The notes beneath the pieces were generated by a model that was not told where the DNA came from, did no database searches, and saw nothing but the letters and a program-made list of their open reading frames with translations. Positions 2,509 through 63,383 of a DNA stretch of 64,000 nucleotides are shown piece after piece; position 1 is the first letter of the stretch, and every line of letters starts with the position of its first letter. Source of the stretch: a virus; the IMG/VR virus record IMGVR_UViG_3300005617_000005, positions 13,875 through 77,874 of that record. The stretch is one strand, 5' to 3'. The position numbers were made by a program, and so were the translations under genes.

Positions 2509-2871
2509 ATGAAAAAGAAGAGGCTCAAGCCCCTCGGTGATCGCATCATCGTCAAGCGGGCGGAAGCAGAGAAGACGTCGCGAGGCACGCACGGCTCGCC
2601 CATCATCATCCCGGACAGCGCTCTCGAAAAGATGTCCGAGGGTGTCATCATCCGAATCGGCCAGGGCAAAACCCAAGAGGACGGCTACGTGCGTCCGTTG
2701 GATGTGGCGGTTGGCCAAACCGTGCTCTTCAGCAAGCACGCTGGCACCGACGTCAAGGTCAACGGCGAGGAGCTGCTCATTCTTCACGAGGAAGACCTCT
2801 TCGGCGTGCTCGAGGAGTTCGACGACGAGGAAAAAGAAGCACCGACCGCGGACGCTACTGCTCCCTCATGA
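2509..2871 (+). CDS. groES: Co-chaperonin GroES
   Basis: LKPLGDRIIVKR...IIIPDSA.EK..EG.II.IG.GK...PLDV.VGQ.VLFSKHAGTDVKVNGEELLILHEEDLFGVLE. Confidence 0.95.
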   Translation: MKKKRLKPLGDRIIVKRAEAEKTSRGTHGSPIIIPDSALEKMSEGVIIRIGQGKTQEDGYVRPLDVAVGQTVLFSKHAGTDVKVNGEELLILHEEDLFGVLEEFDDEEKEAPTADATAPS

Positions 2872-3867: not shown

Positions 3868-4173
3868 ATGGATTTCGGGGATGCAATTCGCGCATTGAAA
3901 AGTGGAAAGCGCGTTTCGCGCACTGGCTGGAACGGCAAAGGCATGTACCTGTTCTGGGGGCGTGCAATCGCGCTTGAACATCTGCCGCACGGCGTGAAAA
4001 TCAATACAGGGGCGTACGGCCATCCACCTCCCGAAGAAGTCGTGAAGATCATGGACAACGAGGGCCCCACGCCATCGATCTGCATGAAGACAGCGCAGAA
4101 CACGATCACCGTCGGCTGGCTTGCGTCGCAGACCGACATGCTCGCTGAGGATTGGGAGGTCGTCGATGGCTAG
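3868..4173 (+). CDS. DUF2829 family protein (Tad2-like anti-defence sponge family)
   Basis: MDFGDAIRALKSGKRVSRTGWNGKGMYL...GWLASQTDMLAEDWEVV; GAGGAG RBS. Confidence 0.85.
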   Translation: MDFGDAIRALKSGKRVSRTGWNGKGMYLFWGRAIALEHLPHGVKINTGAYGHPPPEEVVKIMDNEGPTPSICMKTAQNTITVGWLASQTDMLAEDWEVVDG

Positions 4174-12488: not shown

Positions 12489-12576
12489 TTCGCGGCTCGA
12501 CACACGGCGCGCGATCCATCGATCGCGCTCCGTAGTCGGTTCACGAAGTGTGAAACGAAACCAGGGAGACACGGGG

Positions 12577-15259
12577 ATGCGTTGGTCAATCTACAATCCA
12601 AAGGGGCGTTGCATTGCGAAAGTCATGCACGCCGAAGACGCGGCGATGTTCGTCGGGTCTCTTGGCGCGAACTACACCGTCCGGAACGGGCGCACGATCG
12701 TGTGGCATGAAGGCCACGAGACGATTAGCGCGTGCGAAAGTTTCGACGCGTGCGCGGACGTCATGATCCAGCGCGCGGGTAACCCCTACCTCCGTCACGT
12801 GGTGACGTCATGAATTGCCAGATCCAATGGATCGATTGTGACGGGCGCAGCACTGCGCACGACGCGCAAGCCGTGGCCTACGCGGTTCACAAGGGGAAGC
12901 GCTATCCGATCTGCGCGGCTCACCTGGAGACCTTGAAGGGTCGCCGATCGCATCACTCGCCCGATTGCCCACACCTTGGCGGTTTCTACTTCGCCGGTCT
13001 CTGGGACGTTGAGCCGTTGGTCGATCCCGACCTTGCGAAGCGCTACCGCTTCTTCGTCGAGCACGCGGGCTACTGCTCGCCTCCCGGTCGCGTTGCATGC
13101 GCGCTGGCGCTCGCGAAAGCAGAGCAGGCGGCAGAGCGCCGCGGCTTGAAGGTGCAATGGGAGGAAGAGTGCATGCCGTGGGATGGCGATTGCCCACCCC
13201 CGAAGGTGCACCTGATGGCCAGCATCTACCACCCCGATCGCTCGCCGACTGCTCGCCTAGGTGACGCGCACTATTTCGTGCTGGCGCACCTTGGATCCAT
13301 CGGGCTCGATTCGTGGCGCGATCCGTATATGCGCGTTGTAGCCGCTGAATTGTTCAGCGAAGCGCTTGGCGTGCTCGACGACGAGGACAGCGAAAAAGCC
13401 GAAACGCTGGCGCAACGCGCGACCTACGCGGGGGTTTTCTGATGGGCCTCGAAGTGATTCGCGATCTTTGGTTCTGCGTCGACTGCACGATCGCCGAAGT
13501 GAATGGCGATTGGTCGGGGGTCGAAGGTGAGGAGCGCGTTGCACAAATGGACGCTGGGTTCAAAAGGCTTGGCGAGCAATACGGCCACGTGTCCGCGAAT
13601 TTCGACAGTGAGACCGAGGAAGGGATCCGCGAATTCTCCTCGTGCGGCTGCGATTGTTGCGGCTCGCGTCTCGCTGGAACGTTCCACCGCTTCGCTGTCC
13701 TGGGGGAAAAGTCATGAGCCGCGAAACGATCCTGGACGGCATGGCGACGATCCTTTGGGGATCGGCGTGGGCCGATCACGCCGACGAGTGCAAATGCACG
13801 AACCTCTCCGGCTGCGAAATCACGGAGATCATGCCGGCGATCCCCAAGGAAGCGCGCGAGCATGCCGAGCGCATCGCGAGCACGTACGAAAAAATGAATG
13901 AGTGCAGTCTCGAAGCGCTCTACCAGCGCGCGCTCGACGCGGATGCGAAGGAAGGCATCGAAGCGTGCGACGAAAATGCGAGCCTGGAACGGTTCGGGGA
14001 ATGTCTCGCGTGGGAAGCGATGGGCGCTGGCGTCTCGTGGGAAGACGATCACGCGGAGTATGAACACGACTACCCGCACGACGCTGGCGTCGCCGCGTGC
14101 GAATTGATGTACCTCGCCGAAACCACGTGCGACGAGTGCAAGGCGAAGCGCCGGAAATACACCGTGCTCTCCCTGGATATGTGGGGCCACGTCCCGGCCG
14201 ACTGCCATAAGCACGGCTGCCCGTGCATGCTCACCACGGACGAACGGGGCCCGTTCCACGACGACGATGCGTGCGAGTGCCACGAGGATTGCAACAATCA
14301 GCACAAGGTCGGCACGATCGAGACGCGTAACGACGAGGACAAGACGATCTTGGAAGCGCTACTCGACGCGGAATTTCTGTCTGCCGAGGGGCGCGAGAAA
14401 TGTGAAATCGACGACTACACGGACGGCACGATGCTGGACGTGCTCGACGACGACGGGCGGCGAGTGTTCGCTCTGCACTTGGTCGAGGAAGATGAGGAAG
14501 ATTCGACGACGGTCCCGTCCGATTTTGTCGTGCGTCCCCTCGCGACGGACCAAGAGAAAAAGAACGCCAAGGATCTGGTTACGTGCGGGACGTGCGGTCG
14601 ATCATGGGACGATGCCGTCCCGACTGCCTACACGCCAGCACCAAGCGCGCGCTGTCCATTCGAGGCGTGGCACGCAGAAAGCAAGGAGCCGTGAGCAAGC
14701 CCAAACGCAAAAAAGCCGGACCGCACACGTGGGCGATCCCGTTCACGATTACCGTGACTGGCCACGTCTACATCACAGGCTCGCGCAAGGCTGCCGAAGC
14801 AAAGGCGCGCGAAATGGACGAACACGGTTTCGACCTACGCGCCGAAGGACAGAACGTCGAAATCGACGAGTGGACGGAAGTGCACCAAGACCGCATCGAA
14901 GACATGGGAGAATACTGATGAGCAACGGCACGCAATTGGTTCAGGTGATTGGAGTCGACGGGCGCGCGTTCAGCGTAGTGCTCGTGCAAAAGGGCGAGCG
15001 CTACGGGCTCAACGATTGTCTCGTCCACGATCGGAACGATCCGCTCGTGGAATTCTGGGACGATTCGGCAGACCGCAAGAAATTCCCCGCGCGTGGACAG
15101 TTCGTCTCGCGCTACTACCTCAACACGCTTCTGCAAAGCCCCAAGACCGCGGGGCTCGATCTGGTCGGCTACGTCGCCGCGTGGAAGATCGACGCGCCGG
15201 AAATGGCGAAGGTTCGCGCCGCGCTCGAAACGTGGTGCCTCGCGAAAGGAGCAGCATAG
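12577..15259 (+). CDS. Coupled early-type hypothetical genes (12577-12813, 12810-13442, 13442-13717, 13714-14694, 14691-14918, 14918-15259)
   Basis: ATGA/TGATG overlaps; acidic Cys-rich proteins typical of phage early regions. Confidence 0.7.
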
Positions 15260-15844
15260 AAAAATTACTGGCCCATTCGTGGGCCGGACTAGTCGCGCGA
15301 TTGGTGGACGGAGGTTCCCTCCCTGGTTCCCCGGTCAATCGCGCGCCTAGTCCGGCGCATGACGCGACGGACAACAAGGAAACGGGGATGCAAGAGACGA
15401 GCGTGACAATGACGTGGACGTGCGACGTGTGCGGCGGTACCGCCACGACGCCGCGCGGTCTGCCGGACGGGTGGCGCGAAGTGCGCATCGCTCAGTGGAA
15501 CAACGCGGGTCACGAAGGTGACAAGCATCACGTCTGCGGCAGCGACGAGCCGTCGTGCTTTCGACGGTTGCTGATCAAGCTCGCGAACGAGGACAAGCGG
15601 AAATGACCGCGCTCGCCGACGCCATGTGGGCCGGAGACGTTGACTTGCTCAACGAATTGGCTCCGTGCCAGTGCTGTTGCGACGAGCACACGTACGGCGA
15701 GGGTTGCCCCGCCTATCAGTGGGGCGGCTGCCGTGGCCAAGGGGCCATGACGCGCGCAGAAGAAGCTTCGTGGAAACGGCACTACATGCAGCACCACGGA
15801 ATGACTGAGAACGAATTCTACGGTTACGAACAAGGAGAACGGGG

Positions 15845-16006
15845 ATGAACACTGCACGATTGCGTGAGCACGTTCGCATGATCGCAGATCACGCGAAGGA
15901 AACCGAAGAAGCCGGCACGCCGGACGTTGGAGCGGCGCTCGCTGACATCGCCGATCTTCTCGAAGATCTGGAACGGCGCGTCGAGCGCTTGGAGAAACGA
16001 TCGTGA
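15845..16006 (+). CDS. 53-aa coiled-coil protein not in ORF track
   Basis: AAGGAGAACGGGG-ATG; MNTARLREHV...LERRVERLEKRS; stop overlaps the methyltransferase start. Confidence 0.65.
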   Translation: MNTARLREHVRMIADHAKETEEAGTPDVGAALADIADLLEDLERRVERLEKRS

Positions 16007-20390: not shown

Positions 20391-21255
20391 AAACTTTCTC
20401 AAAAATACTCGACGACCTCACCTCGTACATCGGCGTCGAGATTGTGGTCAATCACGTGCCGCCGGACGACATGATCAAGGCCGTGCTCTTTCAAGCGGTC
20501 GCGGGTTGCTACACCCGCGGCGAAAGCAAAGAGCAGTTTCTCGAACACTGCGCGACTTCTTGGGATCACGCGGTGTCGCTGGAAGAGAGAAAGAAGCTTT
20601 CATGATCGCCAAGCTCATTCTCTGGCTGTACTCGGTGATTTTTCCGCAGTGCATGGTCCACGTCTACACCGGCCCGATGCACGACTACACTGACGAATAC
20701 TTCAGCGAGCAGCTCAACGCGGATTCATTCGCGCGGCGCGACATCGTTTTCAAACGCGACTTCAAGCGCGAGATGCGCATGCTCAGCATGCCGTTCGTAT
20801 ACGGCGTCGCGTGCCGGGAGACGCCATGAACCTGCAACTAGGCGAGCGAGAAATCACCGTCACCGTCGCCCGAACCGACCGAATCGCCGGAGGTGTCTCC
20901 ATAGAATTTCGTGAGGTAACAAGCCCGAACTCGGCCATCGTGCAGTGCGTTCACCTCTCGAAAGATGAAGCCGAAAAATTGCTCCTCGATCTCAAGGAGA
21001 TCCTCACATGAGCCGCGAAGCATTCCAGATCGCGCTGCTCCGAGCGCGCTACGAAGCGTGGGAGCGCATCGGCGAGGCCGTGCGCGAGCTCGCCGACACC
21101 GGCACGTGCGAAGAAGCGAAAGTCGTCGCCGCAGAGAACGCCGTCGCGATCCACAACGAAATCGCCAGCGCAGGAGCCGCGGAGTACGTGGGGTACAACA
21201 TGTCGGTCGAGAAAAAAGTCATCGAGGCTTTTCAGCGCTTCCCGGAGCGGTCGTG

Positions 21256-21498
21256 ATGCCGGCGTGGGGATGGATCGTGCTCTGCATCGGAGCGTTCTGC
21301 TTCGGCTGGACGCTCGGCGCCGACTGGCTTCGGAATCGCGGGCCGTTTCTCAAGTTTCGTCTGGCTGGCGAACGCATCAAGCCGTACCGAGACGACTATT
21401 TCGTTTGTGCCGAGCGCGGCGATGACGAAACCGGCGACGGCTCGAAAGAGAAACCGTTCAAGACACTGGCGCGACTCAAAAAGGAATTCGAGAAATGA
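21256..21498 (+). CDS. Small membrane protein with isolated G-D-x-T-G-D-G-S-x-E-K-P-F-K-T motif
   Basis: N-terminal TM, then YFVCAERGDDETGDGSKEKPFKTL. Confidence 0.6.
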   Translation: MPAWGWIVLCIGAFCFGWTLGADWLRNRGPFLKFRLAGERIKPYRDDYFVCAERGDDETGDGSKEKPFKTLARLKKEFEK

Positions 21499-25838: not shown

Positions 25839-26674
25839 AAGCGTTTTTCTTCGGGTATCGAAAAGGCTCGGGTCACGTTTTGATCGTGCCGGGTGGCCAG
25901 TCGGCGTTTCACGCGGGCTTTCAAGAAGAAGATCGCACCATCGTTCACGTGTTCAAGGGGCACGTCGATGGCGGCCTCGCGCCGAAGTGGTCCGGCACGA
26001 AAGAGACGATCACGTTCACGGCGAACTGGGATCACGCCAGCGACGAGTATCGCCGCGTCGAGTACCGCCTCACGGAGATGCCTCAAGGGCACTACTTGAT
26101 CCATCACGCGAACGGCTACACGTACATGTCGTGGTGGGATCGTACGCAGGGCGACACGCGCGGAGCGTGCAACAGCAACTTCATTCTCGAAGGCACGCAC
26201 GACGCGGTGAAGATGTTCGACGAGCTCGTCGTTCACTTTCCACACGTTGTGGAGAACCTGCGGAAAGCCGAAGTCTCGCTTCGTCAGGTGGTGCTGCCGT
26301 GAGCGAGAAAATCGCCGTGCGCGTGCTGCGTTGTCTTTGCGGCAAGCGCGGGAAATACATCAATGGGTGGTGCGGCGCGTGCCACTACGGCTACATGATG
26401 ACGCTCACGTATGCCGAACGGACGCGCGGCATCCGATGGGGATTCGGCGAGCCGCCGAAGGAGAACGACCGATGATCGCTACGATCATCATCGCGGCGGT
26501 GTTTTTCGTGTCGGGCTTTGGCTTCGGCTGGTGCCTTCGTGGCGATCGTCGCTACGTGGTGCGCGAGCGCGACATCACGCGAAGGGTTTGGCCCGAGATC
26601 GAGCGGGAGATTTTCGAGGGGCTTGCACGTGAACGTGCAGCGCTGCAACAGAAGAAGGACAAGGAGAGAAGTCG

Positions 26675-27160
26675 ATGGAATTGAAGGGGATGTTTCTGCT
26701 CTTGCTCACCGCGTGCGGCCCGGACGCATTCTTCACCATTGGGCCGCTCGTGCCCAACGACGCCGGCGATGCCGAAACGAGCGCGCCTGATCTCGACGCC
26801 GGCGACGCGCGCGTCGATGTGCAAGGCGACTCGAGTGCCGAGGCCGCGGTCGACGCCGGCGACGGCTCGTGTCTCGATGGTACCGAGGCGTGCACCGACG
26901 CGTGGATGTCGTACTGCGCGCGCGTGAAGACGTGCTGCAACGGAGGATGCGCGAATTCGTGGCAGAACAACGGCGGCGCCGAGTGCTACCAGAACTTTTT
27001 CGGTGGAAGTGGCATCGCGTGGTGCTCGAACAATCGGAGCTCGGACATGCGGTGCGCCGAGAAGTGCATCAGCGACATTCAGAACGTGAGCTGCACGACG
27101 ATCAAGTCGACCAACGGGCTCTGGATGGTCTCATCGACCTGCAATACGTACTGGCAGTGA
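26675..27160 (+). CDS. Cys-rich lipoprotein with DAG-rich linker (myxobacterial type)
   Basis: Lipobox LLTAC; DAGD repeats; Cys-rich C-terminus. Confidence 0.7.
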   Translation: MELKGMFLLLLTACGPDAFFTIGPLVPNDAGDAETSAPDLDAGDARVDVQGDSSAEAAVDAGDGSCLDGTEACTDAWMSYCARVKTCCNGGCANSWQNNGGAECYQNFFGGSGIAWCSNNRSSDMRCAEKCISDIQNVSCTTIKSTNGLWMVSSTCNTYWQ

Positions 27161-37625: not shown

Positions 37626-37720
37626 CGCTGGTATAGTTGGGCTGGTGCTCGACGACTGAGCCCGTGACCAAAAGGGGATGCAATGAACAAGGAACCGCTT
37701 GCGCGCGGCGTGGTGCACTG

Positions 37721-38092
37721 ATGCCGCTCATCGAATCCGTTTTCACCACCGGACAAGACCCTGAGCAGCTTGTTGCGCGCGTACGTGTAGACCGCACTGA
37801 AGTCATCCGAAACGGTGACGTCTTTCCGCACTTCGCCGGCCACCAATACTACGCGCTCAGCACGATGCGACTGATCGACGGACCGGAGGGCGAGTGGCGC
37901 GGCTCTCCAACGGAGCACGAGCTCCCGTGGCCATCGGACACGAGGTTGGTCGAAGTCGTCGTGCGCCCCATCAACGGATCCGCACGAGTGTTCACCTCGC
38001 GTGCACCGGGACACGGAAAACGTGGGCCAAAGCCAAAATCCAACGGCGTGATCCCCCACGAGCCCTTTTCCAGCGACAAAGCAGCGGAGTAG
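37721..38092 (+). CDS. Hypothetical protein preceded by a 12-codon uORF
   Basis: TGATG coupling with uORF 37683-37721. Confidence 0.55.
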   Translation: MPLIESVFTTGQDPEQLVARVRVDRTEVIRNGDVFPHFAGHQYYALSTMRLIDGPEGEWRGSPTEHELPWPSDTRLVEVVVRPINGSARVFTSRAPGHGKRGPKPKSNGVIPHEPFSSDKAAE

Positions 38093-39062: not shown

Positions 39063-40461
39063 GCCTTCTTTTTTCGTCGACGCCGCGGCTTCAACGCGTA
39101 CATCGCATTGAGCAACTCTTCGAGCACGAGCGACGGGGGCATCCTCGCGGGAAACGGGTGGATGCGCTTGAAGTCCTTGTCGAACTGATCGCGCTCCTTT
39201 TTCGTGAGCTTTACTCGTCGGTTCACGACGCTTCGCCGCGACGAATCAATGCCATGATTTGACTGTCGGGCCGTACCTTCGGTTTCATCCACTCGACGGT
39301 TTGCTGCCATGCGCTCGCGAGTGCGCTGTCAAAGTCGGCACCACCCGCTCTCACGATGACATCGAAGGTGACTTCCATGCGCGGACCAACACTTTTGTGC
39401 GCGCGGCGCAGCCACTTGTCCGTGAATACTTCTCGGTGTGAAATCTCTTCGAGCACTACAACGTCGTAACCGATGATGGACGTACCGGCGCCACCAGGAC
39501 GACGCCCGCTCGCGATGACGGAGTAGCGGTGCTTCTCGTCAGAAGCGTTGGTCCAAATCTCGACGAGCAATCCTACCGTTTTCATTCGTCCGTCCAGCGC
39601 TCGACCTCGCCGCTGGGCTTCGCGCACTCGTGGTGCCCGTCGTGAAGCTTCCAGAGCGTACAGCGGACGTATTGCATGGGCTGAACCATAAGGGCCGGCA
39701 TCATCTGCGCCACGCCCGCTCGATAGCGCGGCGTGTGACACGGCAAGCGAGCGAACGCATAGGCGACTTGCAAAATCGGACGTCCGAAGCGCTTCAGCAC
39801 TCCGACGAAAATGCCGAGCAGCACGAACATCAACACCCACTCGATCCAGCTCATGATTTCTTCTCGCCTTCCGTGATTGTCATGACAGCGCACTCGCGAC
39901 ACATCGGCCGCATCGTGAAGTCCGAGCCGCCGAAGAGACGCTTGCCGCATTTGCACAAGCCCCTCGGGGGTGCCTGCGGGTAGAGGCGCTTGCGTTTGCC
40001 GGCCTCATCGACGGTGATGCCTTCGCAAAGGTAGATCTGTTTGCACTCCTTGCACACGACGTCGCCGCGCCACTCGACCACACCGTGAACGCCGCACGTC
40101 ACGGTGAGAACGACGTAGAGCCGACCACCGCATCCGCCGTGCTCTCCGGGCGTCGTGAGCATCAGATCGTCGTCAGCGACCTCGATGTCTTCGTCGCACT
40201 TCTCGCAGCGGAGCGTCTTCATCGATCCTTCGACACGGTGTACGTGCCGTCCACGAACCACTTCTCGATCTTGACGCCGTCCGTTGAAATCGTGATGACC
40301 AGCGCCATCAGATCGTCGGTGAGGGTCTCCGCGTTGCCCGTTTCGAGAAGGGCTTTGTCGCTCGCCGCTTTCGCGCGCGCAGCGTTCTCCGCGACGTCGT
40401 TCCACGAGTCGCCGCTCACATCGAGATTGATCGCAAATCGTTTCACGAGACCTCCAAGAGC

Positions 40462-40556
40462 GGGGATGCGGGAAGCCAACCCGCTGCTCGCCTTCCACCC
40501 GGCGAGCCCGTGCACCCCGGCACGAGAGGGACTCGAACCCTCGGACGCCTCATGCC
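40462..40556 (-). ncRNA. Tandem tRNA-like mini-structures
   Basis: GGCATGA/TCGTGCC 7-bp stem plus GAGGG-TTCGAGT-CCCTC T-arm; second branched unit directly after. Confidence 0.45.
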
Positions 40557-44027: not shown

Positions 44028-44373
44028 AAGAAGTTCTCCCATCCGCATCCGGCGAGAGCGATCGTCAAGCGCTGCCCCTCCGCGTCCATGTGCTTGAACC
44101 TGTCGGTGTCGTGAGCGAGCTCCGCCTTCGCTTTCGCGATCGCGGTTCGGTTCGACGGATCATCGACCACGCCGGCGAGCACCGTCCGAAGCGTCAAGAT
44201 GCGCTTCTCCTGGTTTGCGGCCCTTCCCCACGTCGTCGCGACGTAATCGACAGCACGATCTATCTCGTGGCCACGGCCATCGCCGAAGTCTTTTTCGAGA
44301 AGCTCGTCGACAGCTTTTCGCAATCGCAGAAGCGACTCTCGTTGTTCCTTGTCCATGTCATCCCCTACTTTCG

Positions 44374-44556: not shown

Positions 44557-44611
44557 TGACGTACCGACCACAGTAATGACAGGGTAATGCCTTCGTCAAC
44601 TGAAAACGGGG

Positions 44612-46306
44612 ATGAAGAAAAAGAAACGCAGGGAACGATCCCGTCGCGAACGCGCTGACACGGCTGACGCGACAGATCGCGTGACGTTCAACCTCACGGA
44701 GATGAGGAACGCCGAACGTCTGCTCGAATTCCGTGGCGATGATCTCCGCTACGTCGGCCCGTGGAAGATGTGGCTCACGTGGGACGGGCGACGCTGGAAA
44801 CTCGACGAGGATGGGGGCGCGCTCCGCTACGCAAAGGAAAACGCGCAGGTCATGGCAGCCGAAGCCGACGTCGCGGTGAAGAACGCGCAATCGACCGTCG
44901 ACGAGGAGATCGAAGAGGACGCCGAATCGATCGCGAGCGAAGAGAAGAAGCGCGGTCGACCGCGAAAGCCGAAGGCGTCGACCGAAGCGCTCGGAATGCT
45001 CAAGGGCGCGTCCGCCTACAAGAAGTGGTGCGAGCAGAGCCAGAACTTCCGGAACCTCCAGAGCACGCTCTCCGTTGCGGCGTGCGACAAATCGGTCGCG
45101 CTCGTTCACGACCAACTCGACACGCACCACTTTCTCTTCAACGTCGAGAACTGGACGATCAACCTGAAGACCGGCAAGAAGCAGCCGCAGTCGCGCGACG
45201 ATCTCATCACGAAGGTCGCTGCCGTCGAGTTCCACTCGAAAGCGAAGTGCCCGCTCTGGGACAGGTTCGTGCGCGAGGCAATGGGCGGCGACATGGAGCT
45301 CGTCGGGTACCTGAAACGCTTCGTGGGCTACTCACTGACGGGCTCGACGGAGGAGCAAGCGCTCGTCTTCTTCTGGGGCTCGGGCAACAACGGCAAGAGC
45401 ACGTTCCTCACGACGCTCTACAAAATCTTCGGCGACTACGCCCTACGCGCCGCGCGCGGCATGCTCTTTCGCTCGAAGCACGGCGGCGAGCGCCATCCGA
45501 CGACGCTCGTCAGCCTCCACGGCAAGCGCTTCGTGACGTGCAGTGAGATCGACGAGAACCAGGAGCTCGACGAGGGCCTCACGAAAGATCTCACCGGCAG
45601 CGATCCCATCAACGCGCGCCGCATGCGCGAAGACGAGTGGGTGTTCTTGCCGACGCACAAACTCTTTCTCGCCGGCAACCACAAGCCGCGCATCACGGGC
45701 ACCGACAAAGGGATCTGGCGCCGAAACAATCTCGTCCCGTGGACCGTCGCGGTCGCGAAGGACAAGGTGAACAAGAAGCTCGGCGACGAGCTGCTCGAAG
45801 AGGCCAGCGGCATCCTCAACTGGTGCATCGAGGGCTGCATGGAATGGCAAGAGCGCGGACTTGATCCGCCCGAGGCCGTCATCGAAGCGACGAAGGAGTA
45901 CCGCAAAGAGCAGGACGTCCTCGGTCAGTTCTTCGACGAGCGACTCGTGTTCGAGGAGAACGCACTGGCGGCTCGAGCCGACCTGCGAAAGATCTACGAG
46001 GACTGGTGCGAGGAGTTTGGCTACTTGCCCGTCGGCGCGCGGAAGTTCGCGCAGGCGCTCCGCGAGCTGAGCGTCGTTGATGGCTACGTGTGGGATCCGA
46101 ACAAGGCCCAATCCGTCGACGGCTGGCGCGGCGTGCGCATCGCGACGAAGGCCGATCGCGCCAAGAAGGAGCTCGAGCGGCGCGGAAAACAGATGTCGAA
46201 GAAGGAACGGCGCGCGTTCAAGACGATGGTGAAGAAGGCGAATAAAGGAGCAGTGAAGCTTCGGATCGTCCGGAACGACGAAACGAAGTCCCGAGGAGAT
46301 CGCTAA
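44612..46306 (+). CDS. P4/D5-family primase-associated SF3 helicase
   Basis: D5-N (W..WDG.RW), GSGNNGKST, KDLTGSD.I.AR, NHKP, GIWRR. Confidence 0.93.
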   Translation: MKKKKRRERSRRERADTADATDRVTFNLTEMRNAERLLEFRGDDLRYVGPWKMWLTWDGRRWKLDEDGGALRYAKENAQVMAAEADVAVKNAQSTVDEEIEEDAESIASEEKKRGRPRKPKASTEALGMLKGASAYKKWCEQSQNFRNLQSTLSVAACDKSVALVHDQLDTHHFLFNVENWTINLKTGKKQPQSRDDLITKVAAVEFHSKAKCPLWDRFVREAMGGDMELVGYLKRFVGYSLTGSTEEQALVFFWGSGNNGKSTFLTTLYKIFGDYALRAARGMLFRSKHGGERHPTTLVSLHGKRFVTCSEIDENQELDEGLTKDLTGSDPINARRMREDEWVFLPTHKLFLAGNHKPRITGTDKGIWRRNNLVPWTVAVAKDKVNKKLGDELLEEASGILNWCIEGCMEWQERGLDPPEAVIEATKEYRKEQDVLGQFFDERLVFEENALAARADLRKIYEDWCEEFGYLPVGARKFAQALRELSVVDGYVWDPNKAQSVDGWRGVRIATKADRAKKELERRGKQMSKKERRAFKTMVKKANKGAVKLRIVRNDETKSRGDR

Positions 46307-46998: not shown

Positions 46999-48114
46999 AT
47001 GAAGCGCGACGCTCTCCGCTACGCCCGCGAACTCGAGTGGCCGATCTTTCCGATCTACGCCCCGCTCGAAGACGGATCCTGCTCCTGCGGCAAGCGTCAC
47101 AAATCCGCCGGCAAGCATCCGCGAACGTGGCGTGGTGTGAAAGCGGCGACGACGAACGTGAAACAGATCAAGAAGTGGTGGCGCTTGTGGCCTGACGCGA
47201 ACATCGGTCTGTCGACGGACAACGGTCTTGTGCTCGACATCGACGGCCCGAAAGGCGAACGCGATCTGCGGCGACTCGAAAAGAAGTACGGCAAGCTCCC
47301 AAAGACCGTCGAGGCTGTCACGCGCAAGGGTCGACATCTGTTCTTCGGCGTTCGCAAACGTGTTCCGTGCGGCACGCACGTGCTCGGCTCTCTACAGATC
47401 GACGCGCGCGGCAAGGGCGGCTACGTGCTCCTCGCGCCGTCGCGGCATGCGAGTGGCTTCTGCTACCGCTGGAAGCGTTCGCCGTTCGATTGCGCTCTGG
47501 CGGATGCTCCACGATGGCTGGAGAAGCGGCTGCGGTGCAATTTCAACAAGCAGACATCGAAGAAGAAGCTCAAGGATCGAAAGGCACTGCGTCTGGGCGC
47601 GTCCGGGGCCAGAGATCAATCACGGTCCGGTGTAGACGCCCGCAACGTGCTCGCGCTGATGCGACAGGGCGCGAGCGACGACGAGGCGCGCGACATGCTG
47701 CTCAAGTCGTCGAGCAAAGCGCGTGAGGAGGGCGATCGCTACATCGATCTCACCATCGAATGGGCTCGCAGCTTCCATCAAGAGGGCTTGGCGCGCGTGC
47801 GTGTGCTCTCTGCGCGGATCGAACGCCTGGGGGCCACTGCGGCGCAGGGCCGACTTGTGCGGATCGTGCTCATCACGACGACGCGCTTCTGGAAGCGCAT
47901 CAAGTTGCAGGTCGTCGTACCGTCGAAATCCTACTGCTCGAAGAAGATCAAAGACACGTTTCGCGCGGTCGTCGGCAAGCGCGCAAAGCCCCGTGAATTG
48001 CGGCGCTTTGCGCACGGCCGCGACGTTCTATTTTTGTTCCCTACAGAGCTGCGTTTCGACGTTGCGCGCGATCGTTTCGGCAATGTGCGCTTTGTGCGCG
48101 CTCTGGCGCAGTGA
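46999..48114 (+). CDS. Bifunctional DNA primase/polymerase (Prim-Pol) domain protein
   Basis: WPIFP...CSCG...GKHP...G...AT...W...P.ANIG...VLDID...GRHLFF...IDARG.GGYV..APS.H. Confidence 0.9.
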   Translation: MKRDALRYARELEWPIFPIYAPLEDGSCSCGKRHKSAGKHPRTWRGVKAATTNVKQIKKWWRLWPDANIGLSTDNGLVLDIDGPKGERDLRRLEKKYGKLPKTVEAVTRKGRHLFFGVRKRVPCGTHVLGSLQIDARGKGGYVLLAPSRHASGFCYRWKRSPFDCALADAPRWLEKRLRCNFNKQTSKKKLKDRKALRLGASGARDQSRSGVDARNVLALMRQGASDDEARDMLLKSSSKAREEGDRYIDLTIEWARSFHQEGLARVRVLSARIERLGATAAQGRLVRIVLITTTRFWKRIKLQVVVPSKSYCSKKIKDTFRAVVGKRAKPRELRRFAHGRDVLFLFPTELRFDVARDRFGNVRFVRALAQ

Positions 48115-48154
48115 TTGCGCCAATCATTGGCGCAGAGACCGAAAACAGAAGCAC

Positions 48155-48184
48155 TTGCACACAGTCAAGATCTTGTTGTACATT
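48155..48184 (+). promoter_or_regulatory. Promoter of putative sRNA
   Basis: TTGCAC-18 nt-TACATT. Confidence 0.6.
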
Positions 48185-48189
48185 TCATC

Positions 48190-48273
48190 CTGTCACGGCG
48201 ACGCCAGTTCTCCTTGGATGGCGAAACCTCGAAACGGCCTGCTCACATCCCCGAGCGGGCCGTTTCCCTTTTT
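48190..48273 (+). ncRNA. Putative small RNA with anti-RBS loops
   Basis: Own promoter; hairpin 1 loop GTTCTCCTTGGA; 14-bp terminator stem with loop ACATCCCC and T-run. Confidence 0.6.
48231..48273 (+). terminator. Intrinsic terminator
   Basis: GAAACGGCCTGCTC/GAGCGGGCCGTTTC, then CCTTTTT. Confidence 0.8.
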
Positions 48274-48275
48274 GG

Positions 48276-48304
48276 TTGCCGACAAGTTCACGCCTGAGTA
48301 TAAC
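48276..48304 (+). promoter_or_regulatory. Promoter of the recombination/replication operon
   Basis: TTGCCG-17 nt-TATAAC. Confidence 0.6.
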
Positions 48305-48368
48305 GGTGGGGCTCGATCGATTTCATTCGTCGATCTAGCGGGGATGACAATGAACAAGGAAAAGGCAC

Positions 48369-49091
48369 ATGGCGCGCGCCGCCAGTGAGCTGAAGCGATC
48401 ACGTTTCATCAAGGTCTTGCTGATGGGACCGCCCAAAATCGGCAAGACGACAATGGCCGTCGCCACGGCCCCGAAGCCCGTTCGGTGCTTTCTCTGCGAA
48501 AGCGACAGCGCGCTCCATAGCGCGCGCCGGTACGTCGGCGACAATTTCACGTTCGAGCGCACGCGCACGCACAAACGGATGCTTAGCGCTCTGCACGAAG
48601 CGCGCACCGACGTGAAAAAGGGGCGGCTCAGGACGATTGTGGTCGATCCGCTGTCGCTTCTCGCGGCGAACATCGAGGAGCACTGCCTGAAAGCTCACAA
48701 CCAGAACACGTACAAGGCGTACCCGATGTACGGCCGGCTGATCCGCCAAGTGATCGAGCAACTTCTTGATCTGAAGTGCCACGTCATCGTCGTGACGCAC
48801 TACATCGAGACTGGCGGCGAGATGCCTGAGGGCACCGCGCACACGGGTGAAGGCATCGTTCCCATGCTCGCCGGCAAGGCGCGCGCGACGGTCTCTGCGC
48901 TCTTCCCGGACGTCGTGTGGATGGACTACTACAAGGGCAAGCGCATCTTGGTCACCGGACCGCAAGGAGCCTGGGGACCCGGCTGCCGAAGCACGAACGG
49001 CACGCGGGTCATCCCCGCGGACATAGAGCTCGATGAGGGCCGCATTGGTGTGCGCGCTCTCATTCGCGAGTTCCGCTCGACGAAAAATTAG
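48369..49091 (+). CDS. AAA_24 / Sak4-like single-strand annealing ATPase
   Basis: GPPKIGKT, TIVVDPLS, HVIVVTH, P.LAGK; adjacent to an SSB-like gene. Confidence 0.8.
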   Translation: MARAASELKRSRFIKVLLMGPPKIGKTTMAVATAPKPVRCFLCESDSALHSARRYVGDNFTFERTRTHKRMLSALHEARTDVKKGRLRTIVVDPLSLLAANIEEHCLKAHNQNTYKAYPMYGRLIRQVIEQLLDLKCHVIVVTHYIETGGEMPEGTAHTGEGIVPMLAGKARATVSALFPDVVWMDYYKGKRILVTGPQGAWGPGCRSTNGTRVIPADIELDEGRIGVRALIREFRSTKN

Positions 49092-49177
49092 CTCGCCTCG
49101 TCAACGAGCAGAAAGACACCGCGGCTGCCTGAAGGGCCGTTGTGATTGCAATCACGTCACGCAAGGAGAATCGAACA

Positions 49178-49888
<711 letters not shown>

Positions 49889-53527: not shown

Positions 53528-54352
53528 AAAATCGGTGAGGACGACAATGGACGAAAAGTACAAGTGGATCTCGATCGCCAACCTCTCGCTGACCGTCGAG
53601 GGAGAGAAGCACGTGCTTCAGATCGTCGTGAGCCCGGACATCTGGACGGTGCTGGCGCTCGAACGTACGCGAGAGGTCTTTGATAAGGCGGAGCTCCCGC
53701 CTGATGGCATCGGCGCGCACAAGCACGCGATGCTCGGCAAGTTCGTGGGGCCGCTCGAGGCGCTTCAAGCCGCGGAACGTTTCGCCGATGAGTGGAAGAA
53801 GACGGAGACGTTGGATGCCGCGGTGTGCGCATGCTCGGCGTGAACAAAGAGAAGCGCGCCAAAGCGAAGGCACTTCGTGAGTTTCACGCGGCGTTGGCTG
53901 CGAGGCCATACGACTACGTGCGGGTGCTGAATGCGCGCACGGCGCTCACGAGGGCACACTGGCCAAAATACGGAGAGCCGTGGACCGACGGCGAGGTTCT
54001 CGCGCTCAAGCGCGCGGTGCGCTCCAAAATCGGTCACGCAAAACTGCCGAAGCGTCTCAGCTCGAAGATGCTCAGAGAGTTGAGCAAGCGGTTCGGCCGG
54101 ACCGACAACGCGATCTCATGCAGATGGCAATGGATCACTTTCGCGGAGCGCACACGATGACGACTCTTTTCTGCCACGAGTGCCTGAAGAAAGACGGTCG
54201 TCGATCGATCGCGTTCGTGACGGTTCACGACAAGAACGGGTGCACGCACCTCTGTTGGTCGCACGCGAAGAAGCGAGAGAACGATCCCGCAGCGGTCATC
54301 GGGCATTCGGTGGATTGCGCTGAGGCTCGATACAGGGGATGGTGATTCACGC

Positions 54353-54381
54353 TTGAGTATTGCTCTAGCATGAAGTAGGGT
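54353..54381 (+). promoter_or_regulatory. Promoter with palindromic operator upstream of the HerA-like gene
   Basis: TTGAGT-17 nt-TAGGGT; GCTTGAGTA-T-TGCTCTAGC at 54351-54369. Confidence 0.6.
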
Positions 54382-54402
54382 GGGTCTGGTACAGGGGATG
54401 AC

Positions 54403-56298
54403 ATGAAACGAATGAAGCTCGCGCCGGGCTTCGCCGTGCCTGATCTCACGACGGAGACCCTCGGCATCATCGGAAAGCGTGGCTCGGGAAAGAGCCACAC
54501 CGGGACGTTGATTGTCGAAGAGCTGCTCGAGCTCGACTCGCAGGTCATCGTGATCGATCCGATTGGAGGAGCGTGGGGGCTCCGCGCCGGCGCGAACGGA
54601 AAGAAGGACGGTGGGTATGCGATTCCGATTTTTGGCGGACTGCACGGTGATATGCCTCTCGAAGAGAAGGCGGGCGCTCTCCTCGCGGACTACCTGGTCG
54701 AAAACCGGTTGTCCGGGGTGCTCGACCTTTCGGGCTTTTCAAAGAGCGCGATGCGGCGCTTCGTGCGCGACTTCGCGGAGCGCTTCTACTTCCTGAAGAA
54801 CAAGCGGCGTGATCCGGTTCACGTCGTCATCGACGAGTGCGATCTCTTCGTCCCTCAACGCGTCGACTCGCAGGACATGATGCCGCTCGTCGGCGCGATC
54901 AACGACTTCGTTTTGCGCGGCAGGCAGCGCGGCATCGGCGTCACGTTGATCTCGCAGCGACCCGCGCGCATCGCGAAGGACGTGCTCACGCAGGTCGAGA
55001 TTCTGATCGCGTTCCGGCTCACGGGTCCGCAGGACATCAAGGCGTTCGGCGAATGGATCGAGCACAACGGAACGAAGGACGAGCAGAAGGAAGTGCTCGC
55101 GTCGCTCTCGTCGCTCGAGCGCGGCACCGGATGGTTCTGGGCGCCGGGGGTCATGAACGGTTTGCTCCGGCAGATCGAGTTCCGCGAGCGCCGCACGTTC
55201 GATTCGTCACGCACACCCGACGGCCGACGCGTGAAGCCGCCGAAGACGCTCAAGGATGTCGACCTCGGCGAGCTCGACGACGCGATGAAGGCGCAGGTCG
55301 AGCGCGCGAAGGCGGAGGACCCGAAGGCGTTGAGGAGCGAAGTGATGCGCTTGAAAAAAGAGCTGGAGAAGAAGCAAGCGTTGCCGCCGAAGATCCAAGC
55401 GGCGCCGAAACCTCCGCGGTTGCCGAAGCGCGTCGAGGTGCCGATGCTCACGAAGCGCCAAGAGGCGCGGCTCGAAAAGCAGGTGAACGCACTCGTAAGG
55501 GCGTTGACGAGTGTGAACGAGGAGGCACTTCACGCGACAGGCATCGCCAACACGGCGCTCGATGAACTCAAGCGCCTTCGCCAACAGATGCATCAGCTCG
55601 CGGTCGGCAAGATCGCGGTGCCAAAAACTTCGGTCGGCGCGGTGGCCGGTTCACCCTCTCCCGTTCCCGCTCCGCGCCGATCGGAGGTTGATGACGCGCT
55701 TCGTGCGGGGATGCCGCGACTCAAGGCCGCGCTCAAAGCCGGCACGAAGTTGAAGGAGCATACGATCAAGATTGAGGCGACGTTCGATGCTGACTCCGAG
55801 GAGGTCAAGCGGCTCGGCAAGGGCGAACGAAAGGTCATGATCGCGGTGGCGCAGTACGAAGCTGAGGGTGTGACGAAGAAGCAGATCACGCAAATGACCA
55901 ACTACAAGCGGTCGACGCGCGACGCGTATTTGCTACGTCTGCGCAACGCAGGGTTCACTGAAGAGGGCGGCTCGGGTCGAATCCGAGCAACGGGCGAAGG
56001 TATCGCGTGGCTCGGTGACGATTACGAGACGCTTCCGACCGGTGATGCTCTCTACAAGCACTGGCTCCCGCGGTTGCCGGAAGGTGAGCGCCGAATTCTT
56101 GTGCTCGCGCACGAGACGTACCCCGACGATCTCGAAAAGAGCGATCTCGACGTACAGCTTCGCGAGAGCGGAGACGCCTACGCGCGGTCGTCGCGTGACG
56201 CATACATCTTGCGGCTCAAGAACCGTCGTTTGATCGAAGAGCCGAGTCGCGGCTCGATTCGGATGGCGGACGCGCTCGCGGACGAAGGAGAGTTCTAG
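54403..56298 (+). CDS. HerA/DUF87-family ATPase with coiled coil and C-terminal wHTH-like repeats
   Basis: GKRGSGKS, IDPIG, VIDECD, ISQRPA; two RS[T/S]RDAY[L/I]LRL repeats. Confidence 0.85.
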   Translation: MKRMKLAPGFAVPDLTTETLGIIGKRGSGKSHTGTLIVEELLELDSQVIVIDPIGGAWGLRAGANGKKDGGYAIPIFGGLHGDMPLEEKAGALLADYLVENRLSGVLDLSGFSKSAMRRFVRDFAERFYFLKNKRRDPVHVVIDECDLFVPQRVDSQDMMPLVGAINDFVLRGRQRGIGVTLISQRPARIAKDVLTQVEILIAFRLTGPQDIKAFGEWIEHNGTKDEQKEVLASLSSLERGTGWFWAPGVMNGLLRQIEFRERRTFDSSRTPDGRRVKPPKTLKDVDLGELDDAMKAQVERAKAEDPKALRSEVMRLKKELEKKQALPPKIQAAPKPPRLPKRVEVPMLTKRQEARLEKQVNALVRALTSVNEEALHATGIANTALDELKRLRQQMHQLAVGKIAVPKTSVGAVAGSPSPVPAPRRSEVDDALRAGMPRLKAALKAGTKLKEHTIKIEATFDADSEEVKRLGKGERKVMIAVAQYEAEGVTKKQITQMTNYKRSTRDAYLLRLRNAGFTEEGGSGRIRATGEGIAWLGDDYETLPTGDALYKHWLPRLPEGERRILVLAHETYPDDLEKSDLDVQLRESGDAYARSSRDAYILRLKNRRLIEEPSRGSIRMADALADEGEF

Positions 56299-62758: not shown

Positions 62759-62807
62759 GGGCTAGACAGATTCATGCTTGAGTATTAGAGTCGTCTCCAC
62801 AAAGGGG

Positions 62808-63383
62808 ATGACCATGACGCAACAAGGACCCGAGCCGCAAGAAGCACCGAACCCGAACGACATCATGAAGGACATCCTCGACCGCGCAGGGCTCGAGGAT
62901 GTAAACGATGTTCCGATTGGGCTGGAGTTCAACCAAGCCAGCATGGGTGTGTGGCGCGCGGAGAGCTCGCCGCCAGTTCCAGGTTTCGAGTTCCTGCGAA
63001 TCTTCGGGCTGTTTCAAACCGGAGACGAGGTGCGTGTCTACGCCGTTCCCGTCGCGGAGCCGGCGAAGAACAAGGCGGGCGAGTACATCCGCGCGCCGAT
63101 CCCGTACCGCTTCTCGCTCAGCAAGACCGGCAAGCCGTACTTCATCGAGGGCATCGAGAACATCGATGTGTTCAAAGACGAAATCGCTGCGGACTTGCGT
63201 CGGCTCGCGGACGAGACGATGGAAACGCTCTACGGCGAAGACGCCTCGGACCTGCTCGACAAATTGCGCGAGCTCGTGGCCAACGGACGCACCCAAGAGG
63301 CACTCGATCGCCTGATGAAAGAGGACGACGAGGACGACGAGGACGACGACGCGCCGGACAGCAGCAAACCCGCACCGTCGTGA
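62808..63383 (+). CDS. Acidic hypothetical protein
   Basis: AGGGGATG motif at the start; start 62808 or 62814. Confidence 0.65.
   Translation: MTMTQQGPEPQEAPNPNDIMKDILDRAGLEDVNDVPIGLEFNQASMGVWRAESSPPVPGFEFLRIFGLFQTGDEVRVYAVPVAEPAKNKAGEYIRAPIPYRFSLSKTGKPYFIEGIENIDVFKDEIAADLRRLADETMETLYGEDASDLLDKLRELVANGRTQEALDRLMKEDDEDDEDDDAPDSSKPAPS

Follow-up and report, generated by a model that had tools for sequence, protein, structure and literature searches.

A candidate trans-acting small RNA in a rhizosphere virus genome, with a terminator loop complementary to a start-site word of the same genome

The c4 RNA of phages P1 and P7 and the CI RNA of satellite phage P4 (Rfam C4, RF01695) are cut from a longer transcript by RNase P, and each controls one operon (icd/ant and the P4 alpha operon, respectively) for immunity. 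In phage T4, the initiation regions of many early messages are targets of the translational repressor RegA and the endoribonuclease RegB. To our knowledge, the known phage antisense RNAs (c4, CI, sar, OOP) serve one operon each, and the shut-off of many early genes is known for proteins, namely T4 RegA and RegB. Among bacterial small RNAs (sRNAs), loop A and the terminator loop of LhrC each carry a UCCC motif and bind a G-rich sequence before the lapB start (PMC4132741), and the C-rich loops of 6C bind the G-rich ribosome-binding sites of many messages without a chaperone, with dnaB among the targets (PMC6486639). Here, we describe a segment of virus DNA, positions 48155-48273 of a stretch of 64,000 nucleotides (nt), which has the anatomy of an sRNA gene and whose terminator loop is complementary to GGGGATG, a word that tags start sites across the same genome.

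This stretch, referred to as the window, comprises bases 13875-77874 of virus record IMGVR_UViG_3300005617_000005, a complete genome of 77,874 bp from rhizosphere soil with 50-bp direct terminal repeats and a G+C content of 61.7%. All coordinates are those of the window unless marked as genome. The segment lies within the 254 nt that separate a Prim-Pol gene (46999-48114) from the gene of an AAA_24 ATPase (48369-49091). The statistical link between its loop and the genome-wide start-site tag is strong. That 48155-48273 is a stand-alone gene for a trans-acting sRNA of about 82 nt, masking initiation regions, is a plausible reading for which we consider the balance to stand about even.

GGGGATG occurs 20 times in the window compared to 4.7 expected copies, and none of 100 shuffles reached this number. 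On the plus strand of the genome, 16 copies are found where an order-3 Markov model expects 1.7 (z = 10.9), making it the highest-ranked of all 16,384 7-mers, with the runner-up in the same ranking at z = 6.7. None of its 21 one-mismatch neighbours is enriched more than 3-fold, and its flanks are near-uninformative except for an A or C at position -1 and an A-rich upstream side. Therefore, the motif is sharply seven letters long, as long as the CAUCCCC loop discussed below. The wobble variant GGGGGTG shows no placement at starts. Twelve of the 16 plus-strand copies are intergenic (P = 8e-7; the intergenic share of the genome is 17.6%), compared to two of the nine reverse-oriented copies. Of the 17 copies with the orientation of the surrounding genes, 14 to 15 are located, by inspection, between -12 and +19 of a start codon. 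A preliminary description of this DNA, made from the sequence, had proposed such an enrichment at starts, and the count bears it out: the top-ranked 7-mer is concentrated on initiation regions and in message sense.

Three kinds of offset can be distinguished. The first has the motif in the place of the ribosome-binding site, with the ATG 5-6 nt further on (genome 521; 37674, 48340, 54394, 44365 on the minus strand and perhaps 62804). In the second, the ATG of the motif is itself the start codon (12573, 15384, 15841, 44608 and perhaps an in-frame internal start at genome 9012). In the third, the motif lies 9-13 nt inside the open reading frame (ORF), as at 3877, 21266 and 26686. Since its position varies within the ribosome footprint, yet all seven letters are strict, GGGGATG is not a generic ribosome-binding site; judging from the sequence, it looks like a recognition tag.

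The terminator loop of the candidate RNA (loop 2) presents CAUCCCC, so that seven of its eight bases complement GGGGATG. When the 7-mers of 48185-48275 were scored by the rank of their complements, the only outliers were CATCCCC (rank 1) and ATCCCCG (rank 8), both located in this loop; at the level of 6-mers, the loop complements rank first and second of 4,096. The chance of carrying the complement of the top word is about 2/16,384 (about 1e-4) for an 8-nt loop and about 5e-3 anywhere in an 83-nt RNA. The predicted duplex of loop 2 with the tag amounts to -14 to -16 kcal/mol. Opening the tag costs 1.3-3 kcal/mol at most start-region sites, compared to 3-7.5 kcal/mol at reverse-oriented or in-gene copies.

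Two other roles for GGGGATG were considered and set aside. A transcription-start sequence was rejected, as TANNNT is present 12 nt upstream at two sites only, the others having none nearby. A DNA operator of the stoperator kind is unlikely, given a motif of no more than 7 nt whose flanks are uninformative.

The segment opens with a predicted promoter on the plus strand, consisting of a -35 box TTGCAC (48155-48160), an 18-nt spacer and a -10 box TACATT (48179-48184). The pattern TTGCNN-17/18-TANNNT occurs at six sites on both strands of the genome (77.9 kb) compared to 3.9 expected by simulation, and all six are intergenic, compared to about 0.7 expected. In five of them, a leaderless ATG or GTG follows after 6-7 nt (window -5434, 2509, 27938, 28744 and, on the minus strand, 27881). 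The sixth, at 48155, has no start codon at the leaderless position; instead, a terminator begins 47 nt later. As the five sister promoters have their -10 box 6-7 nt ahead of the start, the RNA is predicted to begin at 48191/48192 and, with the terminator as its end, to be a non-coding RNA of about 82 nt (48191-48273, plus strand). Four ORF translations overlap the unit (39-75 amino acids, aa), and none of them is on record as a called protein in the protein collection. Membership of this promoter class is the strongest argument that the unit is a gene of its own and more than a 3' end to the Prim-Pol message. The two could also be compatible, as for sRNAs that are located in a 3' untranslated region and have their own promoter.

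Leaderless starts are not limited to this class. TANNNT is found 5-8 nt before 19 starts genome-wide, mostly as TAGNCT and mostly without a ribosome-binding site (examples are window 9157, 35357, 38125, 61280 and 63396). The promoters at these starts come in two flavours, TTGCNN-17/18-TANNNT and G/T-G-N-TAGNCT without a -35 box. Taken at the sequence level, this points to leaderless translation being widespread in this phage. One of the leaderless genes encodes a GroES/Cpn10 co-chaperonin (2509-2871, plus strand; Pfam E = 3e-26) behind the promoter TTGCGC-18-TATCGT. Relatives of this GroES with 65-79% identity are present on other phage-sized contigs of 59-75 kb, and the nearest named cellular GroES proteins belong to Pseudomonadota (50-58% identity), which is not decisive for the host.

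Downstream of the promoter, folding yields hairpin 1 at 48202-48223, with a CGCCA/UGGCG stem and three weak inner pairs. Its loop region GUUCUCCUUGGA (48207-48218) is anti-Shine-Dalgarno-like, with UCCUU as its open core. It is followed by an intrinsic terminator at 48231-48273, composed of a stem of 14 pairs (48231-48244/48253-48266), nine of them G-C, an 8-nt loop ACAUCCCC (48245-48252), CC and finally TTTTT (48269-48273). The unpaired probability is at least 0.9 for both loops (48211-48215 in the case of loop 1). The whole unit 48190-48275 folds at -37.7 kcal/mol (z = -4.3 versus shuffles), and when both strands of the full genome were scanned, no second perfect stem of at least 13 bp with a T-run turned up. 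The self-contained unit announced in the preliminary description is therefore present by internal statistics, including both promoter boxes with their 18-nt spacer, hairpin 1 and the 14-bp terminator.

The orientation of the unit bears on a further explanation, namely that the minus strand encodes an RNA displaying GGGGAUGU and CAAGGAGAAC in its loops, as a protein decoy of the RsmY/RsmZ type. The mirror-image hairpins do fold on the minus strand, where a -10-like hexamer TATACT is also found (48302-48297). However, a G+C-rich hairpin with a U-run is present on the plus strand only, as no T-run follows the minus-strand hairpin; TATACT moreover matches neither promoter class of the leaderless genes, whereas a class-matched promoter and a terminator are both present on the plus strand. 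Such a decoy can be considered highly improbable.

For the plus-strand RNA, the loop of hairpin 1 (loop 1) adds a second complementarity. It complements CAAGGAGAAC exactly over 10 nt at 15831-15840, as well as 8-9 nt of the strong ribosome-binding sites at 26458, 49162, 3684, 20993 and 26660, amounting to six ribosome-binding sites at 8-10 nt. The 10-nt match and the 9-nt matches at 49162 and 26458, both 5-7 nt before an ATG, had been noticed earlier, as had the adjacency of both loop targets at 15831-15847, and all of them were found again. CAAGGA, the complement of the loop 1 core, lies within 36 nt of seven tagged sites (P of about 3e-8 versus the genome, or about 0.01 if, as a rough guess, CAAGGA is present in a fifth of the start regions). 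Four targets (37674, 48340, 62804 and 44365 on the minus strand) have it 14-19 nt downstream of the tag, which is the order expected when the 3' loop 2 and the 5' loop 1 pair in antiparallel fashion with one message. The order is reversed in three others (15384, 15841 and 26686).

These observations can be held against the simplest alternative, a plain operon terminator: the hairpin would end the D5/Prim-Pol transcript, the promoter match would be non-working and the loop match coincidental, with GGGGATG being recognised by something else or inherited in duplicated leader cassettes. The terminator shares the strand of Prim-Pol, lies 117 nt beyond its stop codon and could simply end this operon, which also counts against a separate gene. 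The loop match is moreover a single instance, so that chance is a possible cause. In addition, a longer element, GGGGATGmmATGrACAAGGAA, is common to four tagged leaders, so part of the motif count may reflect the duplication of a leader cassette and not selection for pairing. On the other hand, at least 11 tagged sites lack the longer cassette. The promoter belongs to a six-member, wholly intergenic class, the complement of the top-ranked 7-mer would fall in the loop with a chance of about 1e-4 to 5e-3, and the second loop complements an element that co-occurs with the tag; the plain terminator thus needs three coincidences. We regard it as a real but minor possibility, and a trans-acting RNA as the better account of the same features.

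The co-occurrence of GGGGAUG and CAAGGA could also mean that the two form a bipartite site for an RNA-binding regulator, either a host dimer of the CsrA/RsmA type or a phage protein like RegA or RegB. The sRNA would then be irrelevant, or would modulate access to the sites. A CsrA dimer binds two GGA motifs, and the consensus of its sites from systematic evolution of ligands by exponential enrichment (SELEX) is RUACARGGAUGU. Both elements indeed contain GGA and are spaced 9-26 nt apart over the ribosome-binding site or start codon, which fits a protein of this type and speaks against an RNA as the reader of the tag. Two sites read ACAGGGGAUG, close to this consensus with one extra G. However, CsrA sites are degenerate outside GGA, whereas the tag is strict at 7/7 positions. 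No CsrA gene is present in the phage, and the loop complementarity would be left as a coincidence. This explanation seems unlikely, although less so than the decoy, and sRNA recognition of the tag is retained as the working interpretation.

The tagged sites themselves deserve a closer description. At 48340-48346 (plus strand), GGGGATG provides the ribosome-binding site for an upstream ORF (uORF) of 12 codons, which runs from ATG 48350 to TGA 48388 and overlaps the AAA_24 start at 48369, with CAAGGA at +15. A similar arrangement is seen at 37674-37723 (plus strand), where the tag precedes a 12-codon uORF (ATG 37683) whose TGA overlaps ATG 37721 of a 123-aa ORF, with CAAGGA at +14. In both leaders the longer element opens the uORF, both uORFs (37683-37723 and 48350-48388) begin with MNKE, and the first closes with TGATG, which includes the main gene's start; from its sequence, the arrangement looks like translational coupling via a leader peptide. 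At 15831-15847, CAAGGAGAAC adjoins GGGGATG around ATG 15845 of a 53-aa ORF, offering complementarity to both loops (10 + 7 nt). At 15375-15390, CAAGGAAAC is followed by GGGGATG with ATG 15388 of a 72-aa ORF, and at 12573-12579 the ATG of the motif starts a 78-aa ORF behind the ribosome-binding site AGGGAG (all on the plus strand). The tag is also found 9 nt before ATG 44356 of a 110-aa ORF on the minus strand (44359-44365, CAAGGA at +14), and at or 6 nt before the start of an ORF of 189-191 aa on the plus strand (62804-62810, CAAGGA at +19).

All GGGGATG coordinates in the preliminary description are correct, although its list was incomplete, lacking 40462, 54335, 55707 and two copies outside the window. 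At three sites, all on the plus strand, the motif is found inside the ORF and not ahead of it, namely 3877-3883 (+9 inside a 101-aa ORF starting at 3868), 21266-21272 (+13 inside an 81-aa ORF starting at 21253) and 26686-26692 (+11 inside a lipoprotein-like ORF starting at 26675, whose ribosome-binding site CAAGGAGA lies 26 nt upstream of the tag). The site at 48340 is near a start as claimed, this being the start of the uORF and not that of AAA_24. For the D5-like helicase, the motif does coincide with the first ATG (44608-44614, plus strand), but the start at 44612 is an uncertain choice, as GTG 44681 scores equally. The gene behind 54394-54400 (plus strand, 9 nt before ATG 54403) encodes a 631-aa P-loop ATPase with a weak DUF87/HerA match, and its HerA label rests on a 42-residue P-loop match. 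The SSB label at 49162 is unsupported, since the gene at 49178 has no SSB signature. The description 'early and replication genes' is only partly accurate, as most targets are small ORFs of unknown function.

Two further copies of GGGGATG supply in-frame internal ATG codons in long ORFs. One is at genome 9012 (window -4862), within a 547-aa gene (genome 8440-10083), and the other at 55707 on the plus strand, within the HerA-like ATPase. By their sequence, both could be internal starts; the one at genome 9012 would yield a protein with an Arg/Lys-rich leader.

Upstream of the Prim-Pol gene (Pfam E = 8e-39) lies the D5-like helicase, and downstream a family A polymerase with a UDG domain. Directly 3' of the Prim-Pol stop codon at 48114, an 8-bp hairpin TGCGCCAA-TCA-TTGGCGCA (48116-48135, plus strand) without a T-run may, from its sequence, stabilise the upstream message or form its 3' end; an A-rich stretch connects it to TTGCAC. 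Between the terminator and the AAA_24 gene, the 15-nt box TTCAYGCYTGAGTAT is located at 48287-48301. An exact-copy search found it three times in total, only on the plus strand (also at 54346-54360 and 62771-62785), in each case 20-45 nt upstream of a GGGGATG-tagged start of a replication-type operon. It is probably a promoter or operator class for replication operons, including the operon after 48287.

The box also has a bearing on whether the unit acts in cis, as a leader made from the promoter at 48155 with the terminator controlling read-through into the AAA_24 operon. In the read-through RNA, the loop would pair with GGGGAUG at 48340 and hide the ribosome-binding site of the uORF. The unit does share the strand of the AAA_24 gene, which lies about 100 nt further downstream, and the tagged site follows 88 nt after the loop. 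However, no alternative antiterminator pairing was seen, and the position of TTCAYGCYTGAGTAT, a box common to two other operon heads, between the terminator and AAA_24 points to a separate promoter for this operon. About 13 other tagged sites would also stay unexplained. An attenuator is therefore very unlikely.

Next, relatives of the unit were sought. In Rfam, no family reached the gathering score in the window, and at E<=10 the region 47900-48500 gave only chance matches of the microRNA type; the covariance models for 6C, C4 (RF01695), RsaE and LhrC did not match the candidate RNA in this region. BLASTN gave no match to phage records; for the DNA polymerase, identity to isolate phage records stays below 28%. 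Protein relatives of the Prim-Pol with 59-89% identity do exist on contigs of up to 116 kb, among them two of about 89% identity on contigs of 75.2 and 75.4 kb, two of 71% identity on contigs of 4.2 and 6.7 kb, and one on a contig of 85 kb. In viral contigs, the Prim-Pol as a single query and the DNA polymerase gave no match, and a Prim-Pol alignment gave matches of at most 41% identity. The sole close match in metagenome contigs, 1.1 kb long, ends inside the Prim-Pol gene, upstream of the RNA, and the best match in genome contigs is 47% identical. A scan of the viral contigs for the pattern loop 1-gap-loop 2 returned 11 matches, none with the hairpin-terminator anatomy.

Closely related strains were present in three other soil or rhizosphere runs, differing by about 2% in the coding flanks, mostly at third codon positions. 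Their contigs are fragmentary, derive from strains of about 98% identity and hold parts of the unit only, with 48164-48204 (-10 box, start and part of hairpin 1) uncovered. Within the covered parts of 48115-48308 no change was found, the first one being G>T at 48309. In one run (X3), the covered intergenic stretch shows one change compared to about five expected (own estimate, P of about 0.04). This invariance is a weak sign of constraint.

Several further points weigh against a trans-acting sRNA. With its 5 + 3 pairs, hairpin 1 is weak. As a generic anti-Shine-Dalgarno sequence, the loop would fit any ribosome-binding site that is strong, and by itself its complementarity does not reach significance across the genome. 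Pairing seven of the eight loop bases is sterically demanding, and some tagged sites are poorly accessible, with an opening cost of 8.6 kcal/mol at 62804. CATCCCC itself is mildly over-represented on the plus strand (9 versus 3.4 copies). The start codons on which the placement of the tag depends were assigned by a home-made gene caller plus inspection. Finally, no RNA homologue was found in the viral, metagenome and genome contigs scanned, Rfam gave no match, and no RNA run is included among the listed sequencing runs holding this phage.

The mechanism that would follow from the sRNA reading can be outlined as follows. A host-type promoter, TTGCAC-18-TACATT, of the class that also drives several leaderless phage genes, would drive the sRNA, and transcription would end at the strongest intrinsic terminator of the genome. 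The RNA would display two pyrimidine-rich loops. CAUCCCC would pair with the GGGGAUG tag in the region that the ribosome covers (-12 to +19) on about 14 Shine-Dalgarno-using phage messages, and the hairpin 1 loop (core UCCUUG) with nearby CAAGGA or AAGGAG. Such pairing might hide the ribosome-binding site or the start codon and reduce the translation of the tagged set, i.e. the D5-like helicase, the AAA_24 operon (via its uORF), the HerA-like ATPase and several small ORFs. Leaderless messages without such a site would escape. Of the genome-wide repressor proposed earlier, the analysis recovered the anatomy, the class of promoter, the statistics of the motif and the base complementarity, whereas production of the RNA, its pairing with the tag, an effect that is repressing and not activating, and the time at which the RNA acts are deduced.

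A bolder version would be an RNA-based temporal switch, in which the tag and CAAGGA are carried by all Shine-Dalgarno-led early and replication messages for joint shut-off, with leaderless late messages being immune. This extension is doubtful and offered tentatively. If it were true, GGGGAUG would be a genome-wide address label for RNA-mediated shut-off. On the sRNA reading in general, if correct, one phage RNA would address about 14 dispersed messages through an exact 7-nt tag, and the phage genes would be split into repressible, leader-bearing and non-repressible, leaderless messages. This would provide a compact post-transcriptional timing of the phage programme. It also suggests a search rule for other phages, i.e. 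setting the complements of hairpin loops against the start-site word that is most over-represented in the genome; no description of this principle was found in the literature searched.

Further elements were noted in the window. A tRNA-like minihelix is located on the minus strand at 40440-40556, with a 7-bp acceptor-like stem (GGCAUGA/UCGUGCC) and a canonical T-arm (GAGGG-UUCGAGU-CCCUC). Two hairpins come after it, and then CAUCCCC, about 20 nt short of the following minus-strand gene with its GGAGG-GTG start. The element could signal processing and offer a second sequence directed against the tag. A long inverted repeat at 15283-15356 (plus strand) has CTCCCTGGTT in its loop, the exact complement of AACCAGGGAG in the leaders 11797 and 12559. 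The copy at 12559 is directly upstream of the tag at 12573, and the chance of such a 10-mer match is about 0.15 genome-wide. A small ORF from 26472 (plus strand) begins with MIATIIIAAVFFVSGFGFGW after the ribosome-binding site GAAGGAGAAC and, from its sequence, looks like a holin- or spanin-type membrane protein; the lipoprotein-like ORF at 26675 (signal ending in LLLTAC) follows it.

Compared to the known systems, the candidate resembles T4 RegA and RegB in that one phage factor would act through a short shared sequence on many early or replication messages, the factor being a protein in T4 and a candidate RNA here. With c4 and CI it would share the nature of a phage-encoded, trans-acting antisense RNA with two loops that cover two nearby sites over the ribosome-binding region. 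Two adjacent sites are present at 15831-15847 (10 + 7 nt), and six more targets have both elements within 36 nt. The analogy to P1 C4 and P4 CI drawn in the preliminary description is therefore sound for the two loops and their adjacent sites. It fails for RNase P release, as the unit has its own promoter and terminator, for the single operon, as about 14 targets are dispersed over 77 kb, and for the Rfam C4 family, which gave no match.

The actinobacterial 6C RNA also has two hairpins with C-rich loops, which bind many single-stranded G-rich ribosome-binding sites, including that of a replication helicase. Unlike 6C, which is chromosomal, the candidate has one C-rich loop only and no Rfam 6C match at E<=10. 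The UCCC sRNAs (LhrC1-5 of Listeria, RsaE/RoxS, RNAIII, SprD and FsrA) are short RNAs with their own promoter and terminator, as the candidate is predicted to be, in which the loops of the first hairpin and of the terminator expose a UCCC motif, pair with G-rich start regions and block initiation (PMC4132741). In the candidate, the exposed loops are ACAUCCCC (loop 2) and the UCCUU core of loop 1, and the complementary G-rich initiation regions are about 14 tagged start regions and the six ribosome-binding sites matched by loop 1. It has no sequence or Rfam relationship to these RNAs, and its host is unlikely to be a low-GC Gram-positive bacterium. In contrast to the UCCC sRNAs, the candidate is encoded by a phage and apparently aimed at the phage's own genes, and its target is an exact 7-mer including the AUG, rather than merely a G-rich ribosome-binding site.

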